From Candidatus Hydrogenedentota bacterium (GTDB taxonomy: Bacteria > Hydrogenedentota > Hydrogenedentia > Hydrogenedentales > SLHB01): a stretch of 64,000 bases of DNA. The position numbers and the translations under genes are program-made. The notes under the pieces are model-generated. The model did no database searches. It had not been told where the DNA came from and worked only from the letters and a program-made list of their open reading frames with translations. Within the stretch, counting starts at the first letter, position 1. Each line of letters begins with the position of its first letter. Positions 3,216 to 9,809 of the stretch are shown piece after piece. The stretch is taken from positions 224,001 to 288,000 of the forward strand of contig CAVUWV010000031.1 of assembly GCA_963745075.1 (NCBI GenBank), in the 5' to 3' direction.

Positions 3216-4274
3216 ATGATTATGCTGGCCGCGATTCTGGTATTGGCCGCGCCGGTGGACGGCAGCGTACGTGAACACGCGGACGCCATTCTCGCCGCAC
3301 AACTTCCGGACGGCGCAATCGTTCACGCGACGGACGGCGATGAAATCGCGATCGTGCCTTACCTTGGAAACCAGGCGGCCGCGGGCCTGTATGAAGCATA
3401 CCGGGTGACGGATGACGCAACGTATCTCGACGCCGCGAATGCCTGGGTGGATTGGTACCTCGATCGCATGGACCTCGACGGCCGGGTCGTCGAGTACCGC
3501 GGGACGAAGGATAACTATCGCCCTGTGAATACCGGCGGGGTTGACGTGCCGGGTGCGGCGACGTTCCTGGAATGCGCGAATATGCGGCGCGTTCTCACCA
3601 AGGACCGGTACTTCCTGCTTCGGGAACAAGCGAAACTGTGGAGGGTGTACGAGACGGTGGTGAATGCGGCGGAGCCGGACGGACTGCTGTACGCCTACGA
3701 AGACGCGCCATACAAGTCAACGTTCCACAATATCGAGGCCTATGAAGGGTTGTGGCATGCCCGGCAAATTGCGCGGAGTTTGCGCGATTACCACTGGAAT
3801 TCGAGCATCTACTACGCCCGCCGAGGAATTGAATCGGCTCTGGATCGAATGCGTGACGAGAATGGGCTGTATGCGTGGGCCAAGGCGCGGGACAACACGA
3901 TCGAGTGGGCGGAGGATGCATCAACCTTCAACACCGTGGGGCTGGCAAATCTGGCCGCCGCCGCGTACGGGCCGACCAGCGAACACGAAGCGAAGGAGAC
4001 CCTGCGTGGCGTTCGCGAGCGTTTCCCCGATCTTGGCGCATGCACGCCGGCGCAACTCTACTGGTGGTCGGCTGCGGCGTGCCGGGTGGATGACGATTCC
4101 GTGGCAAAACATGCCGCGCAACTCGTGGAAAACTTGGCGCCGGGGGATGCGTCCCCGGCGGACCATGCGTACTGCATCCGGATCCTTGTTCTCGCAGACA
4201 AAGGCGAACCGCGTCGCTTCGGCGTGCCAATGGGATCGACGTACATCCCCTATCAACGGCCCATCTTTCGTTAA
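3216..4274 (+). CDS. Secreted hypothetical protein, probable alpha/alpha-toroid (glycosidase-like) fold
   Basis: AGGAGGT RBS at 3204-3210, ATG 3216, signal peptide; ILAAQLPDGA and LYEAYRVTDDATYLDAA helical motifs. Confidence 0.6.
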   Translation: MIMLAAILVLAAPVDGSVREHADAILAAQLPDGAIVHATDGDEIAIVPYLGNQAAAGLYEAYRVTDDATYLDAANAWVDWYLDRMDLDGRVVEYRGTKDNYRPVNTGGVDVPGAATFLECANMRRVLTKDRYFLLREQAKLWRVYETVVNAAEPDGLLYAYEDAPYKSTFHNIEAYEGLWHARQIARSLRDYHWNSSIYYARRGIESALDRMRDENGLYAWAKARDNTIEWAEDASTFNTVGLANLAAAAYGPTSEHEAKETLRGVRERFPDLGACTPAQLYWWSAAACRVDDDSVAKHAAQLVENLAPGDASPADHAYCIRILVLADKGEPRRFGVPMGSTYIPYQRPIFR

Positions 4275-4356
4275 GACGAGCCCGGTCTTTTGACTTTCGC
4301 ACTCACGGCCCCTAGCATACCCGTTTGATTGAAAGTCTGCTGATGGAGTATGTGCC

Positions 4357-5281
4357 GTGAGAACTTGGGTAAGAATTCTTCTTGCAATCCTCCTGCTCGT
4401 CATTGTCGGCGGTGTCGCCGTGTTGTTCATCGCGGACAGCAAGTACCAGTTCCTACGGGACGCGCCGAGGATTTCGCATGAAACCCTGGCCCAACCCGAC
4501 ACGAGCATTCGGATCGTCGCGCAGCCGCCCTTGGCCAAGGACATCATCAAAACGGTCCTGGGGGACCAGGCCCCGAGCGACTGGGTCCTGGAAAAGGCGC
4601 TTCCCTACGAAGTTGCTCTGCTGATTACGCCGCACCTGGATACCGGCAAAATCGACATCGACCTTTTCTGCAATGACCGGCGGCTGGGGCCGCTCATCGC
4701 GGCACAGTCGTCGCAGTTAGCGCTCGACAGCGCATACCCTTTCATCCACTGGGACAGCGGTCGATTCAGCGAAACGAGCCGGGGCAGCCTGGTGTGGCAT
4801 GGCACGGCCGATATCAAGTCGTCGGTGGTCGATAACGTGCGCACCCATTGGGGAGACGTTCCGGCAATTGAGCCGGGCGCGCGCGAAAGGCGGCCACTTG
4901 GTGGAGGCCGTCGTCGACAATCGGGACGGTTCCTTGTTCACCCTGATCGCCACCCTCCAGGCGGACGGCGAAATCGTGCTGCCCATTTCGCTCGAAGACG
5001 TTGCCAAGAGCCTGTTAACCGTCGCGGACGTCCACATTACCGCCGACATGGACGGTCCCGACAACCTTTCCATAGACATGGTCGTGGACTGCGTTCCCCA
5101 AGCGGAACCCGGCGAAATTACGGCGACGAGTTTTCTGATTGGCGGGATACTGAATCAAATCTCGCTGATACTGGAACAGAACTACAAGGTGACTTTTGAA
5201 GGCACCAAAAAGACCGAAGGCACCGCCATTCTGAGCACGTACACCCTCACACCCTTGTCTCGATTAGTGCACGCCAGATAA
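4357..5281 (+). CDS. Membrane-anchored hypothetical protein, frameshifted near 4880
   Basis: ORF 4357 (N-terminal TM) turns into Arg-rich junk after ~4880, where ORF 4799..5281 becomes protein-like (HLVEAVVDNRDG...). Confidence 0.6.
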
Positions 5282-5283
5282 CG

Positions 5284-5375
5284 CTACATCCGCTCCAGGG
5301 CATCGATTCCGAGGAGTTCGAGCGCGTTCTGGATCACTCGCCGGGTTGCGGCACAAATCTGGGCGCGTGCCACCC
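5284..5375 (-). pseudogene. Duplicated 3' end of argS (last 29 aa + stop), att-like fragment
   Basis: Aligns with 6438-6529; 8 differences in the first 90 bp, 7 synonymous; encodes VARAQICAATRRVIQNALELLGIDALERM*. Confidence 0.9.
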
Positions 5376-5806
5376 CCGGACTTCCTGGGTTCATCTCCAA
5401 ACAGCGCGGCTCTTCGACGCCCCGCCCAAAACGTCATCCCCGGCTCCGAAAGCGGGGACCCATCTTCAACCAACGCCCCAGGCTCATCCTTCACACACCA
5501 TCCGTGAACGTCCGTGTAGGTCCGTGGCGCCTTGCGCGCCGTCAGACCGGAAGTGTGTTTCGGTCATTGGTTATTCGGTCATTAGAATTTGTTTCGGATT
5601 TCGTGCTTCGGATTTCGGATTTGGCTGCGGCTATGCCGCGCCGGGCTACACTCAAATCGCCCCGTCCGGCGCAAATACGGTCTTTCCCCACGACAGTGTT
5701 CTTCCTGCCAATTCATCGGTGTAATCGGTGCAATCGGTGGATGAAACTCTTGGTTTCGTTCCGGCTTCGTCCCGCTGTGGAATCCCAACGTACCGCTCAA
5801 CGGAGA

Positions 5807-5918
5807 ACGGGCGTCTCGCCCGTTCGTCTTCACCGCTCCCCACCGTGATCCCATCACACAACCCGTCTCCACCCGCCGTGCGACGCCACCCCCTCCACGG
5901 GCGAGACGCCCGTGCCCC
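5807..5918. repeat. REP-like inverted pair (ACGGGCGTCTCGCCCGT / CACGGGCGAGACGCCCGTGCCCC)
   Basis: Palindromic units at 5807-5823 and 5896-5918; same sequence family as 44250-44361. Confidence 0.8.
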
Positions 5919-6148
5919 CTTACCCCCTCGCCCCGATCGCAACGCACGTATCTTCGGCCTCCCGCCATCTTCCCGATCCTCTGACCGTGTCCTCCCCAAC
6001 AAAAGATTCGCGCCAATCCGAACCATCCGCCAAATCCGCGTTCCATTGATTTGTCGTTCATCAGTTCCCTATCTCCACTGCAACACCCCGCGCTATAGTG
6101 ATAAGGACAACTCCACCCATGACAATCGCCCCAAAACGCGCTGCACAC

Positions 6149-6382
6149 CTCCAGCCTCCGGACGCCGGACCCGCACCCCCCTTGTTTCGTCAAAAAGCAG
6201 GGAGGTGTACACCCCCCAGTCCTCCAGGCTCCCTTCTCCCGCTTCTCCCGCGTCATTCCAGTGCAAGTCCCAGACGTCCATGATGATTAGGAGAACGCCG
6301 TCCCCATCGCTCCGGACTCCAGCCTCCGGACGCCGGACTTGCACCCCCCCTTGTATCGTCAAAAACAGAGGGGGGTGCTCAC
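6149..6382. repeat. ~65-bp imperfect direct repeat with internal hairpin
   Basis: 6149-6212 and 6317-6382: CTCCAGCCTCCGGACGCCGGAC..GCACCCCCC TTGT.TCGTCAAAAA..AG.G..GGTG. Confidence 0.85.
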
Positions 6383-6437
6383 GCGGGACAATCGCCGGAC
6401 GAATCACAGGGGACGGGCTTTTGAGGAGAAATGCGGA

Positions 6438-8135
6438 CTACATCCGCTCCAGGGCATCGATCCCGAGGAGTTGGAGTGCGTTCTGAATCACCCGCCGGGT
6501 TGCGGCGCAAATTTGGGCGCGCGCCACCCGGTGCGCATCGGTGGGGGCATCGATTACCGGGCATTCGTGGTAGAAGGCCGTAAACGAACGGGCGGCATCG
6601 AGGGCAAACTGAGCGACCGGCGCCACACTTCGCTGGCCGATCCCGAGTGCGACCACATCGGGAAATGACGCAAGTTTGGTTAATAGAGCCCACTCGGCAT
6701 CGTTTTCGAGAGGAAATGCATCGCCTGGAGCATCCGGAACCGCAGTCCCAAGCTTGCGTAAGATGGATGAAATCCGCGCGCATGAGTATTGGACGTAGGG
6801 CCCCGTGTCACCGGTAAACGACAGGCTCGCATCCCAATCGAAGATTACGTTCTTATTTGCCCCGACGCGCAGGATGGCGAATCGGATCGCCGCGACCGCG
6901 ACTTTGGCGGCAATGGCTTGGCGTTCTTTCTCGGGAAGATCTTTACATTGCTCTTCGACTTTCTCCGCAGCCCGCGCCGACGCCTCGTTGAGAAATTCGG
7001 AGAGGAGCACGACTTTGCCTTGGCGGGTCGACATCTTGCCTTCCTTCAGCAGGATGTACGAGTAATAGATAGGTTCGGGGGACGCGATCTCCGCGGCAGC
7101 GAGTATCAAGGCAATCTGCTGCATATACAGCCGGTGATCTTCACCGAGGACGATCAGATTGAGATCGGCGCCCTTCTCCATCTTGTCGATGGTGTACGCG
7201 ATATCGCGGTACCCGTACATGGAGCTGCCGTTTGACCGCAGGAGCGCAACGTACCGGCCTTCTTCGTAGGTGTGACCGATCTTGCTGAGGTCGACGGAGA
7301 GCCGGCCCTCTTCATCGGTAAACACCGCGTCTTTCGTGCGCAGCACTTCCAGAATCCGTTCCAACCGGGGATCCTGGACAAAATCGGACTCGCGATCGAA
7401 ACGATCGTAGGCGATCCCCAACCGTTCAAGTACCGCGAGCTGCCCTTGTAAACACAATTCCGTGATGGCGCGAAACCGCTCGCGTGCCTCCGGGTCGCCT
7501 TGCTCGATGCGAGCCAGCAACTCGAATCCCCGTGCCGCGAATTCGGGCTCGGCTTCGGCACGCGCATTGGCGTCCGCATACACTTGAAGCATGCTGTCGA
7601 ACGTCAACGTCTCGGGACGATCGCACGACAGTACAAGCAGCGCGATTTGACGCCCGATGTCGTTGACGTAGTAGTGGGTTTCCACGTCGTATTGCTCGAA
7701 TCGGAGCAACCGTACCAGGCTGTCGCCGATCATGGCGTTCCGGGCGCGGCCCACGTGCGGACTCGCGTTGGGGTTGATGCTGGTGTGCTCGACCAGAGCC
7801 CGCAACCCGACGCCGCTGGAATTGCTTCCGTATCGAGGCCCGCGCGCGAGAATGGCGCCGACGATCCGCTTGCCGAAGTCATCGCGGTTCAACCGGAAGT
7901 TGACGTAGGGGCCCGCCGTAAACGCTTCGGCCACGTCATCGCCAAAAGTGACCTCTTTGGCAATTCGGGCAGCCAGTTGCGGGGGAGGGAGTTGAAGTTT
8001 TCGCGCCGCTTCAAAGGTGCGGAGCGCCACGTCGCCCATCTCCAACTTGGGCGGCGGAGCAAAGGCCAGGTCTTCCGGCGCAAGTTCCGGAAAGGCGTCG
8101 AGAATGGGGCTGGCCAACGTTTGATACAGGTTCAC
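6438..8135 (-). CDS. argS: Arginine--tRNA ligase
   Basis: EHTSINPNASPHVGRARN (HIGH region), KMSTRQG (KMSKS), GDTGPYVQYSCARISSILRK, DALERM end; probable GTG start 8135 with GGAG upstream. Confidence 0.96.
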   Translation of the reverse strand: MNLYQTLASPILDAFPELAPEDLAFAPPPKLEMGDVALRTFEAARKLQLPPPQLAARIAKEVTFGDDVAEAFTAGPYVNFRLNRDDFGKRIVGAILARGPRYGSNSSGVGLRALVEHTSINPNASPHVGRARNAMIGDSLVRLLRFEQYDVETHYYVNDIGRQIALLVLSCDRPETLTFDSMLQVYADANARAEAEPEFAARGFELLARIEQGDPEARERFRAITELCLQGQLAVLERLGIAYDRFDRESDFVQDPRLERILEVLRTKDAVFTDEEGRLSVDLSKIGHTYEEGRYVALLRSNGSSMYGYRDIAYTIDKMEKGADLNLIVLGEDHRLYMQQIALILAAAEIASPEPIYYSYILLKEGKMSTRQGKVVLLSEFLNEASARAAEKVEEQCKDLPEKERQAIAAKVAVAAIRFAILRVGANKNVIFDWDASLSFTGDTGPYVQYSCARISSILRKLGTAVPDAPGDAFPLENDAEWALLTKLASFPDVVALGIGQRSVAPVAQFALDAARSFTAFYHECPVIDAPTDAHRVARAQICAATRRVIQNALQLLGIDALERM

Positions 8136-8203
8136 AGAAAACTCCACTCGTTTTGGACGGAGATGTCCCCGACGATCGTGCAAAGATCCGTTTGGACGAT
8201 CGA

Positions 8204-8770
8204 TTACTGATTGGCGGTGCCGGCGGATGGTTCGGCAGCATCACCGGAATCGGCGCCGGTCTCGTTGCCTCGGCTGATTCGTTGGTTCCATTCGCGGTCT
8301 TTTTGCATTTTCAGGCGATCCACGTCGGAAAGCTGCCGATCCGTTACAATCACGAGATGGTAGCCCAAACCCGACTTCAAGACGGGACTCAGTTTGCCGA
8401 TCGGGGCCGTCCACGCGTATACCTCAATCGCCGGGTCGAGCGTTCCCATCGGGACGTATCCGATATCGCCGCCGCGCGCAGCGCTCTGGGGATCGTTGGA
8501 GTACTCTTCCGCCATGTCGCCGAAGTCGGCTCCATTCACAATGCGTTCGCGCAAGTCGCGTATGAGATCGCGCGCGCGGGCGTCGTCCGCCGGGTCGCCC
8601 GCTTTAACTGCGATGAGAATGTGTTTCAGCCGGACCATAGACGTGTTCGGATTCGTCTTACCCGACCACCAGATCGCGACGGACATCATGGCGACCAGGA
8701 CGAACACGGCGCCCCAGATCAGTTTCGTACGGTCTTTTGGTTCCGGCAAATCGTCTAACTCAGATCCCAT
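8204..8770 (-). CDS. Membrane-anchored parvulin (PpiC-type) peptidyl-prolyl isomerase
   Basis: N-terminal TM; KHILI, FGDMAEEYSNDPQSAARGGDIG, LSPVLKSGLGYHLV. Confidence 0.9.
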   Translation of the reverse strand: MGSELDDLPEPKDRTKLIWGAVFVLVAMMSVAIWWSGKTNPNTSMVRLKHILIAVKAGDPADDARARDLIRDLRERIVNGADFGDMAEEYSNDPQSAARGGDIGYVPMGTLDPAIEVYAWTAPIGKLSPVLKSGLGYHLVIVTDRQLSDVDRLKMQKDREWNQRISRGNETGADSGDAAEPSAGTANQ

Positions 8771-9809
8771 CCAGAATGTCTCCCATCATGCCGAAGTACA
8801 TCAAATAAAACGAGATAATAATATACCCAATCAGCCCGGCCACGGCCAGGAGGATCAGCACGCCCATGACACGCGTGGCGATGGCCACCGCATGCTGCGC
8901 TTCTTCGAGATGGTATTCGGAGACCTTACGCAGGGCCTGTTCCATCTGACCGGACTGCTCGCCGATGGCGATCATTTCCCGCGCGGTGGGGGTCAGCATC
9001 CGGGAAGCGCCGAATGATTCGACGAGCGTATATCCTTCCCGCACCAGCGGCACGGCTTTCAGCAGATCCTTCTCCATATATGGATTTGCGGTGATGGCGG
9101 CGGAATTCACGATGCAGTGGTCCACCCGCACCCCCGCTCCGATCAGCAAGGACATGCTGCGGAAAAACCGGGCGAGCCCGAAACGTCTCGTGACCGGCGC
9201 CATGGGCCAGATGTGCGTCGCAAACAAGCCCCACACATAGCCGAAGAGACCGAGCCGGGACAACACGACGCAGGCGGCAAAAATCGCGGCAAACACCAGG
9301 GTCGCTTCGGCCTGGAAAATTATGTAATCGTGAACGAACTTCATGAGATCGAAACTCTGACCCGACGCGCTCGGTTTGAAGATTCCGCTGATTCGCCGAA
9401 TGAGCATGATCGCGAACATCCCCACGTACCAGGCGGCGGCAAGTTGAAGGCCCGGGTAAATGAGGGACCGGACGATCTGGCGCTGCATATCGAGGCGGTC
9501 CTCGTAATACTGGGCCAAGTCGCGCAGCATGATGTCGAGTTTTCCGCCCGTTTCGCCGGTGGCAAGGAGTTCCACGAAGAACTGGGGCAGGTACCGGCGC
9601 TGGGTCCGGGCGGCATCGCCGAGGGTGCCCCCGTTCTTGATGGTATCCCCCATCTCTTCCATGACTTGGCGAATGCGCTTGTCGCCATTTTGCCGGCCCA
9701 CGATCTCGAGTCCGCGCAAAATGGGAATGCCCGCGTCGTAGGACGTGGCGAGTTGACGGCAGAGGGGAACCACTTTTTTGAGCGATATTTGCGGAGAAAA
9801 AAGGCCCAT
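8760..9809 (-). CDS. pilC: Type II secretion F / PilC family inner-membrane platform protein
   Basis: RQLATSYDAGIPILRGL, GETGGKLD, FFRSMSLLIGAGV, IGEQSGQME; ATG 9809 (MGLFSPQIS). Confidence 0.85.
   Translation of the reverse strand: MGLFSPQISLKKVVPLCRQLATSYDAGIPILRGLEIVGRQNGDKRIRQVMEEMGDTIKNGGTLGDAARTQRRYLPQFFVELLATGETGGKLDIMLRDLAQYYEDRLDMQRQIVRSLIYPGLQLAAAWYVGMFAIMLIRRISGIFKPSASGQSFDLMKFVHDYIIFQAEATLVFAAIFAACVVLSRLGLFGYVWGLFATHIWPMAPVTRRFGLARFFRSMSLLIGAGVRVDHCIVNSAAITANPYMEKDLLKAVPLVREGYTLVESFGASRMLTPTAREMIAIGEQSGQMEQALRKVSEYHLEEAQHAVAIATRVMGVLILLAVAGLIGYIIISFYLMYFGMMGDILDGI

Follow-up and report, generated by a model that had tools for sequence, protein, structure and literature searches.

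A duplicated argS gene end and a gene-less insert in a Hydrogenedentota genome: possible traces of a single crossover

Why should the end of the arginyl-tRNA synthetase gene argS be written twice? The question is raised by a stretch of 64,000 nucleotides from Candidatus Hydrogenedentota bacterium (assembly GCA_963745075.1, contig CAVUWV010000031.1, positions 224,001 to 288,000 of the forward strand), which we call the window and whose numbering is used throughout. The gene is intact, and a second copy of its last 92 bp is found at an offset of 1,154 bp, beyond 1,062 bp of DNA with no credible gene (Table 1). An earlier note, made from the letters of the window, took this arrangement for the scar of an element inserted in argS. 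We have found that the site is empty in near-identical strains and in related species, and that the empty-site allele changes from the bases of one copy to those of the other in the middle of the repeat.

The two argS ends and the empty site

The two copies align without gaps over 92 bp with 91% identity (E-value 3e-30 in the genome search), and no third copy was found in the genome. The final 90 bp of each are 30 codons of argS, 29 residues and a TAG stop. There are eight mismatches, seven of them at synonymous third positions and one a Q/E change, as the earlier note had counted; it was also right about the 24 bp at the stop end, which are the same in both copies. This block is their longest perfect match; it lies at chance level (P about 0.09) and is unremarkable alone. 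Downstream of the stop codon the likeness between the copies stops at once. The abrupt end had been placed 2 bp past the stop end: the abruptness stands, but the two further matching bases (5375/6529) sit at the upstream edge of the repeat, not on the stop side. Seven bases match at this 5' edge, by our estimate about what chance would give at 9% divergence.

The excess of synonymous changes is larger than expected under neutrality (P = 0.0007–0.002 for at least seven of eight). It also exceeds what would be expected from an identical duplicate that diverged later while constraint acted on the live copy alone (P = 0.011). The synonymous divergence (dS) between the copies is about 0.38. Such a bias points to an origin of the two copies from two working argS alleles, and upholds the initial claim that both were once under protein-level selection.

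Same-species sequences are available from six runs, which cover small shares of the region with short contigs only. Three of these runs (X1, X2 and X4) agree with the window at the distal end. The contig of X2 bridges the distal junction 5375/5376: it covers 5282-5432, with 94 and 57 bases on the two sides. That of X1 (5145-5405) holds the neighbouring gene, the distal copy and 30 bases of the insert, and that of X4 covers 5438-5614. None of the three differs from the window at any base; they belong to one study, perhaps related to the source of the assembly, and count once at most.

The empty site is found in contigs of X5 and X6, runs whose study codes differ from that of X1, X2 and X4. The X5 contig lies on 6438-6594 and ends in 19 loose bases which are exactly window 5265-5283; thus argS abuts the neighbouring gene directly in this strain. 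It has two differences from the window. One is the distal base at 6473; the position of the other is not listed and may be 6462. At all six 5' variant sites it has the proximal bases. The X6 contig, on 5178-5375, starts in the neighbouring gene and reaches across the argS end; at 5323, 5332 and 5338 it agrees with the proximal copy, at 5308 and 5319 with the distal one. It has three more differences without listed positions, as many as there are remaining variant sites near the end of the contig, and we infer that these three 5' sites also carry proximal bases. Other contigs of X5 and X6 are 0–2% different from the window, as it corresponds to near-identical strains.

The empty-site allele has proximal bases at the 5' sites and distal bases at the 3' sites. 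Provided that the resident allele is the one seen in X5 and X6, this switch in mid-repeat would make each present copy a hybrid, with only the final 40 bp or so swapped and the exchange at 6474-6476. The proximal copy would then be resident above 6476 and incoming below 6474, the distal copy incoming above 5322 and resident below 5320. On the two low-depth contigs the homology amounts to about 53 bp upstream and 36–39 bp downstream of the exchange. All six differences upstream of it are synonymous (P 0.0005–0.0008), therefore that part also comes from a working gene. The switch does not agree with the original proposal of an element of the e14/icdC type, which restored the whole C-terminus and displaced the whole original end.

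The locus is present in four of the five congeners (best amino-acid identity 83%), and each of the four has only one argS end, which faces the same neighbouring gene across a gap of about 25 to 280 bp. Together with X5 and X6 they provide the empty sites that the earlier note had suggested looking for in relatives, and the view of an insertion scar in a gene left intact is maintained. In three of the four the gap holds unrelated DNA like repetitive extragenic palindromic (REP) sequences, without duplication; otherwise there is next to no such DNA in it. A comparison with the congeners by eye at the eight variant sites does not single out either copy as resident: three sites favour the proximal copy, two the distal copy and three neither.

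We also searched 134 other genomes of the phylum, of which 119 match the argS C-terminus. A tandem second argS end occurs in none of these 119 (one genome per species, many of them fragmented assemblies); in three of them a further match lies on a different contig. At the DNA level 70 loci were examined, which overlap partly with the 119 genomes, and in none of the 68 testable ones is the argS end repeated downstream. Therefore argS is not a recurrent target in the genomes searched. The suggestion of a system targeting argS is not supported, and the longer, integrase-bearing versions of the locus looked for in relatives were not found.

Routes by which the second end may have arisen

The reading that we consider rather probable is a single crossover of a circle of 1,154 bp, which would have carried the argS end of a sister species and the repeats downstream of it. 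Chromosomal DNA of a close relative would have entered the cell, been trimmed and had its ends joined, giving the sharp junction 5375/5376. The circle would hold the last 92 bp of the donor argS and the 1,062 bp of repeat-laden DNA behind it. Host recombination, presumably dependent on RecA, would then pair the 91%-identical argS ends and resolve at 6474-6476. In this way argS would survive with a hybrid end and one conservative residue changed. The event was probably neutral, as it added no gene and changed one residue of the synthetase.

Several features agree with this route. Among them are the moderate likeness of the insert repeats to the resident families (66–90% over the longer matches), the REP-like DNA that congeners hold in this gap without a duplication, and the seven further gene-end copies, described below, with no integrase between them. 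The value of dS fits a donor from a sister species. The genome encodes comEC and dprA, which makes DNA uptake plausible. The all-synonymous differences in the 53 bp upstream of the exchange favour a donor sequence derived from a gene; an attachment (att) site would not need them, since an integrative element requires only the part of the gene downstream of its crossover. In Escherichia coli, trimmed and recircularised DNA gave partial lacZ duplications of 109–950 bp in 56 of 60 Lac- clones, and the single crossover was RecA-dependent in that assay (PMC3240628). The insert had been described as either a decayed island or a non-autonomous or homology-driven system targeting argS; its homology-driven option is the one retained here, without the targeting.

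A number of points weigh against the single crossover. The phasing rests on two short contigs with depths of 2.5 and 3.1, both from 2017 soil runs which may represent one campaign or lineage. The neighbour side of the X5 contig has 19 bases, under the 31-base rule for bridging, and site 6462 is not read out in it; the X6 contig stops one base past the repeat. Neither the proximal junction nor the span of both copies is bridged by any contig of the six runs. The same hybrid would also arise by loop-out of an older insert. A gap of 3 bp between mismatches is an unlikely spot for a RecA crossover, and 92 bp at 91% identity make a poor recombination substrate, below the lengths in the E. coli examples. 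A site preference is hinted at by the dyad around the crossover. The gpsA scar described below has no synonymous bias (11 differences synonymous, 14 not). Finally, the donor was not found: the 32-base pattern on the junction side has no exact match in the genome contigs searched, and the congeners are too distant. In run X2 there is also a contig 87% identical to argS (6982-7058), which indicates a co-occurring sister species at a donor-like distance; it cannot be called the donor.

The main alternative, an unlikely one, is an integrase element like e14 that has since lost its recombinase. Its insertion point would be the 5' edge of the repeat, the whole new argS end would have come with it, and X5 and X6 would be later loop-outs, made hybrid by recombination between the two copies. 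In elements of the e14 type the crossover lies at the 5' edge and the element supplies the whole working end; a tyrosine recombinase uses 6–8 bp of identical overlap at the crossover. The seven identical bases at the 5' edge and the end of the likeness exactly at the stop suit this model, but seven are about the chance expectation given above, and at the inferred exchange only three identical bases are found between 6473 and 6477. Loss of e14 yields icd/icdC chimeras (PMC13626634), and one loop-out lineage could account for both contigs. In the family, tandem comM ends are recurrent, and one set of them has a serine recombinase at a distance of about 7 kb; for argS, a tandem end is absent from all 119 genomes and 68 loci. 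The insert has no trace of an integrase, and there the earlier note was correct. The genome has four PF00589 matches and one PF07508 match, none within 70 kb of the scar, the nearest tyrosine recombinase being 72 kb away. The insert resembles the ordinary intergenic repeat DNA of the genus and matches no plasmid or phage. A weaker argument is that, of the present copies and the phased alleles, only the latter have complementary bases at the dyad positions 6486/6462. The argS scar thus lacks the features of the e14 type that were tested: an integrase, a repeated target, an overlap of 6–8 bp and a crossover at the 5' edge, this last one only if X5 and X6 are not later loop-outs.

We give still less credit to a recombinase acting in trans, or a nuclease cutting hairpins, that joined a non-autonomous circle at the dyad centred on 6474. 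The exchange falls within 3 bp at the centre of this dyad, which has seven of eight pairs. At 6486/6462 both phased parents have a Watson-Crick pair, through a compensatory change, and neither present copy has one. Besides the single PF07508 match there are 16 Y1_Tnp matches in the genome, and the 2-bp overlap of a serine recombinase would be suitable. However, an equal dyad is reached by 32 of 538 control windows in argS (6%), and the test was post hoc. The lack of recurrence at argS and the other scars, which are found in unrelated genes with no common junction motif by eye, speak against such an enzyme, and it would leave unexplained why 53 bp of homology under protein constraint lie upstream of the exchange.

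We find it very hard to accept a one-sided integration, with homology in argS and illegitimate rejoining within the resident gene, or a copying of the target, so that the distal copy would be purely resident. One-sided integration is known for competent bacteria (PMC3240628), and the dnaE2 scar has about 155 identical bases in its 5' part, as this model predicts. In the argS case the six 5' sites of the distal copy do not agree with the empty-site allele, plain duplication followed by drift is rejected by the test given above (P 0.011), and the model is already contradicted if X5 and X6 carry the resident allele. Last, a chimeric assembly of two strains is scarcely credible. In its favour, several genes of the assembly look frameshifted and neither the proximal junction nor the pair of copies is covered by a single record; against it, the X1, X2 and X4 contigs of one study join or cover the distal copy and the insert with no differences.

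Comparison with known systems and other gene ends

The argS scar belongs to a known kind of event, the insertion with long target duplication (PMC2853133); the phasing of the alleles is what is usefully added here. As in the cases described in that article, a small insert without mobility genes lies between repeats of more than 30 bp, the repeat reaches the stop codon, the target stays intact, relatives have an empty site and the host has competence genes. The argS locus has a direct repeat of 92 bp, above 30 bp, around an insert of 1,062 bp, below 20 kb, with no mobility gene. Table 2 of the same article includes a Haemophilus influenzae case in which the two flanks depart from the empty target at one base each, and not at the same one (45/46, 45/46 and 44/46), the same hybrid pattern as in the argS copies. 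In contrast, the argS insert has no restriction-modification genes, nor any gene. Such cargo was a search criterion of Furuta, Abe and Kobayashi 2010 (PMC2853133), so that our scar works like these insertions but is not a restriction-modification member. It differs further in that the repeat consists of two alleles 9% apart instead of a copied target, with an exchange point that can be mapped. The mechanism is left open in that article, whose discussion invokes double-strand breaks and presents release and reinfection as lacking experimental evidence (PMC2853133).

The usual interpretation of such scars is an att site left by a lost island, or a copy of the target. The empty-site alleles place the exchange in mid-repeat; this separates the models and points to a donor gene end and a single crossover. 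Phasing the flanks against empty sites of the same species is a cheap test, which can be applied to many such scars.

The integration of recircularised DNA in E. coli is similar in that a partial gene duplication brackets foreign DNA, with no integrase and an arbitrary junction; it was obtained with a laboratory plasmid, identical homology and duplications of 109–950 bp (PMC3240628), whereas argS is a natural case with 92 bp at 91%. The e14/icdC pair and att remnants without an integrase (PMC13626634, PMC6379469) share with argS the order of an intact gene and, behind it, a stray copy of its 3' end that differs mostly at synonymous sites, and loss leaves a chimeric gene. Unlike argS, e14 is a site-specific prophage of 15 kb; our scar has no integrase, no recurrent target and an exchange in mid-repeat.

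The insert also resembles REP sequences and the paired, hairpin-forming REP doublets (REPINs), as they have been described: it consists of dispersed palindromic and short-period intergenic repeats, with one full inverted pair. It is unlike them in having seven families crowded into 1 kb, several as single arms. Of the 16 Y1_Tnp loci, candidates for the RAYT transposases that go with such repeats, one has insert families (modules D and F) within 1 kb. We know of no REPIN movement that duplicates 92 bp of a gene.

The earlier note had proposed a scan of the genome for other duplicated 3' ends. It was done as two scans of crudely called open reading frames (ORFs) together with an inspection of 20 selected regions, in which 96 of the 119 predicted ORFs were scanned, and found seven further genes with end copies of 24–248 bp. 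They are comM (184 bp, with an IS1595 transposase in the insert), gpsA (161 bp), hpnH (about 89 bp, copy frameshifted), dnaE2 (248 bp, with the identical 5' run), an aldo-keto reductase (24 bp, identical), a hypothetical gene (35 bp) and a gene with a pectate-lyase domain, which has three extra end copies of 93 bp. The names comM, gpsA, hpnH and dnaE2 are those which we presume from their Pfam domains. Neither PF00589 nor PF07508 was found between the copies at the seven scars. In five pooled loci 33 of 42 differences are synonymous (P 1e-6); the pool leaves out gpsA, the frameshifted hpnH and the identical 24-bp case. The seven scars and that of argS need not share one mechanism, because of the 155-bp identical run in dnaE2 and the recurrence of comM in relatives.

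We dropped from the list a C36 gene, which has a paralogous domain in the next gene, as well as two Rhs loci and a transposase pair after inspection, and whole-gene paralogues. Candidates in clpP, nifU and a sulfatase gene were left unclassified. The nifU-like case (G000:C4:46693-49580) is a mirror image of the other scars: the 5' end of the gene and its upstream region, about 130 bp, are duplicated around a norB-like nitric oxide reductase gene.

Three relatives (G003, G021 and G114) have tandem comM-end matches; in G005 it is a gpsA end that is found in tandem. In the comM loci (L181-L184) a comM-like full gene is followed by one or two end matches, in G003:C4:48569-81998, G021:C38:21406-30018 and G114:C692:988-4089. 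A gene with several helix-turn-helix motifs directly precedes three of these four loci, and the set in G003 has a serine recombinase (PF07508) about 7 kb upstream. The gpsA ends bracket a GMT-wHTH gene and DUF5131 in G005:C432:1-2169, and two HEAT-repeat genes in the genome studied here (G000:C12:20083-24214).

A wider proposal, of which we are doubtful, is that this lineage routinely gains DNA from sister species as small circles, by one crossover in 25–250 bp of imperfect gene-end homology, possibly guided by hairpins; circles and not integrases would then make most long target duplications. If true, this route would spread REP-like families across species without gene cargo.

The insert and its surroundings

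The coordinates of all features are given in Table 1.

Table 1. Features of the argS locus in the window
Feature	Positions	Strand	Basis and remarks
argS, intact arginyl-tRNA synthetase ORF	6438..8183	-	ORF list, from first possible start; Pfam; orthologues
Proximal 92-bp copy, working argS end	6438..6529	-	Alignment and empty-site contigs
Distal 92-bp copy, orphan argS end	5284..5375	-	Alignment and empty-site contigs
24-bp identical block, possible pairing seed	6438..6461, also 5284-5307		Alignment
Putative crossover interval of 3 bp, flanked by variant sites 6473 and 6477	6474..6476 (= 5320-5322)		X5 and X6 contigs, eight variant sites
Imperfect dyad centred on 6474	6459..6489		Arms 6459-6466 and 6482-6489, 7/8 pairs
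Insert, 1,062 bp, patchwork of dispersed repeats, no credible gene	5376..6437		Pfam, codon usage, Rfam
Module B, hairpin	5417..5469		18 other genome loci; also multi-copy in congeners
Module C, short-period unit	5490..5530		24 other loci
Module D, single arm	5546..5654		59 other loci; elsewhere often in inverted pairs
Module F, short-period unit	5712..5784		8 other loci
Module G, complete inverted pair of palindromes, REPIN-like	5795..5926		26 other loci; best copy 86% identical; pair spans 5799-5921
Module I, short-period unit	5975..6071		7 other loci
Repeat of about 310 bp, two hairpin-bearing sub-copies (6149-6221, 6317-6388)	6072..6388		28 other loci; long copies 66–70% identical
Convergent neighbouring gene, family unassigned	4357..5281	+	ORF list, Pfam, congeners

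The argS product matches PF00750 (tRNA-synt_1d), PF05746 (DALR_1) and PF03485. In 39 of 40 relatives the alignment with the orthologue begins at about residue 15, and the genuine start is probably some 15 codons past the first possible one. The stop of the distal copy lies 2 bp from that of the convergent neighbour. An in-frame ATG seven codons ahead of this copy opens a micro-ORF of 36 codons (5284-5394, minus strand), which terminates in the C-terminal peptide of the synthetase; no well-spaced ribosome site was seen, and it is probably due to chance.

Near 4860-4900 the reading frame of the neighbouring gene breaks in two; the congeners G003 and G005 have it as a single frame. Other genes of the assembly look split as well (dnaE2, a TauE gene, an oxidoreductase and a sulfatase), so indel errors in the assembly are possible.

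In the insert no Pfam family is matched in any of the six frames, read through stops, and its ORFs gave nothing credible against Pfam; 10 of the 11 are negative on a score of the codon usage of this genome. An Rfam scan of 4000-9000 had no match, nor had the insert any in the plasmid and phage collections. Against its own genome a tblastx search matched only repeats and low-complexity sequence. We have found in it no remnant of the neighbouring gene and, at the threshold of the scan, no promoter of the sigma-70 type.

The insert is made of seven repeat families, each of which is also found at 7–59 other loci of the genome; no other cluster with more than four of the seven was found there. The longer matches to the genome's own families are only 66–90% identical, which suggests that the modules are kin of the resident repeats rather than fresh copies. 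Modules C, D, F and I (5490-6071) are single arms with a common orientation. The order of module I followed by the 310-bp repeat (5975-6388) is repeated at L160:3364-3955 and L163:3276-3898. Several copies of the 310-bp family have a TATAAT-like hexamer near the start, and strong hairpins are present at the end; this family may be an undescribed miniature inverted-repeat transposable element or a small RNA gene.

The idea that these families flank genes for four-helix-bundle, GxxExxY or GIY-YIG proteins found no support here, as of the four genes of these kinds that were tested one has a repeat of the families within 1 kb. Elsewhere in the genome, at G000:C8:264300-265200, there are tandem units of about 75 bp, similar by eye to the 5' half of a tRNA, beside a short GIY-YIG gene.

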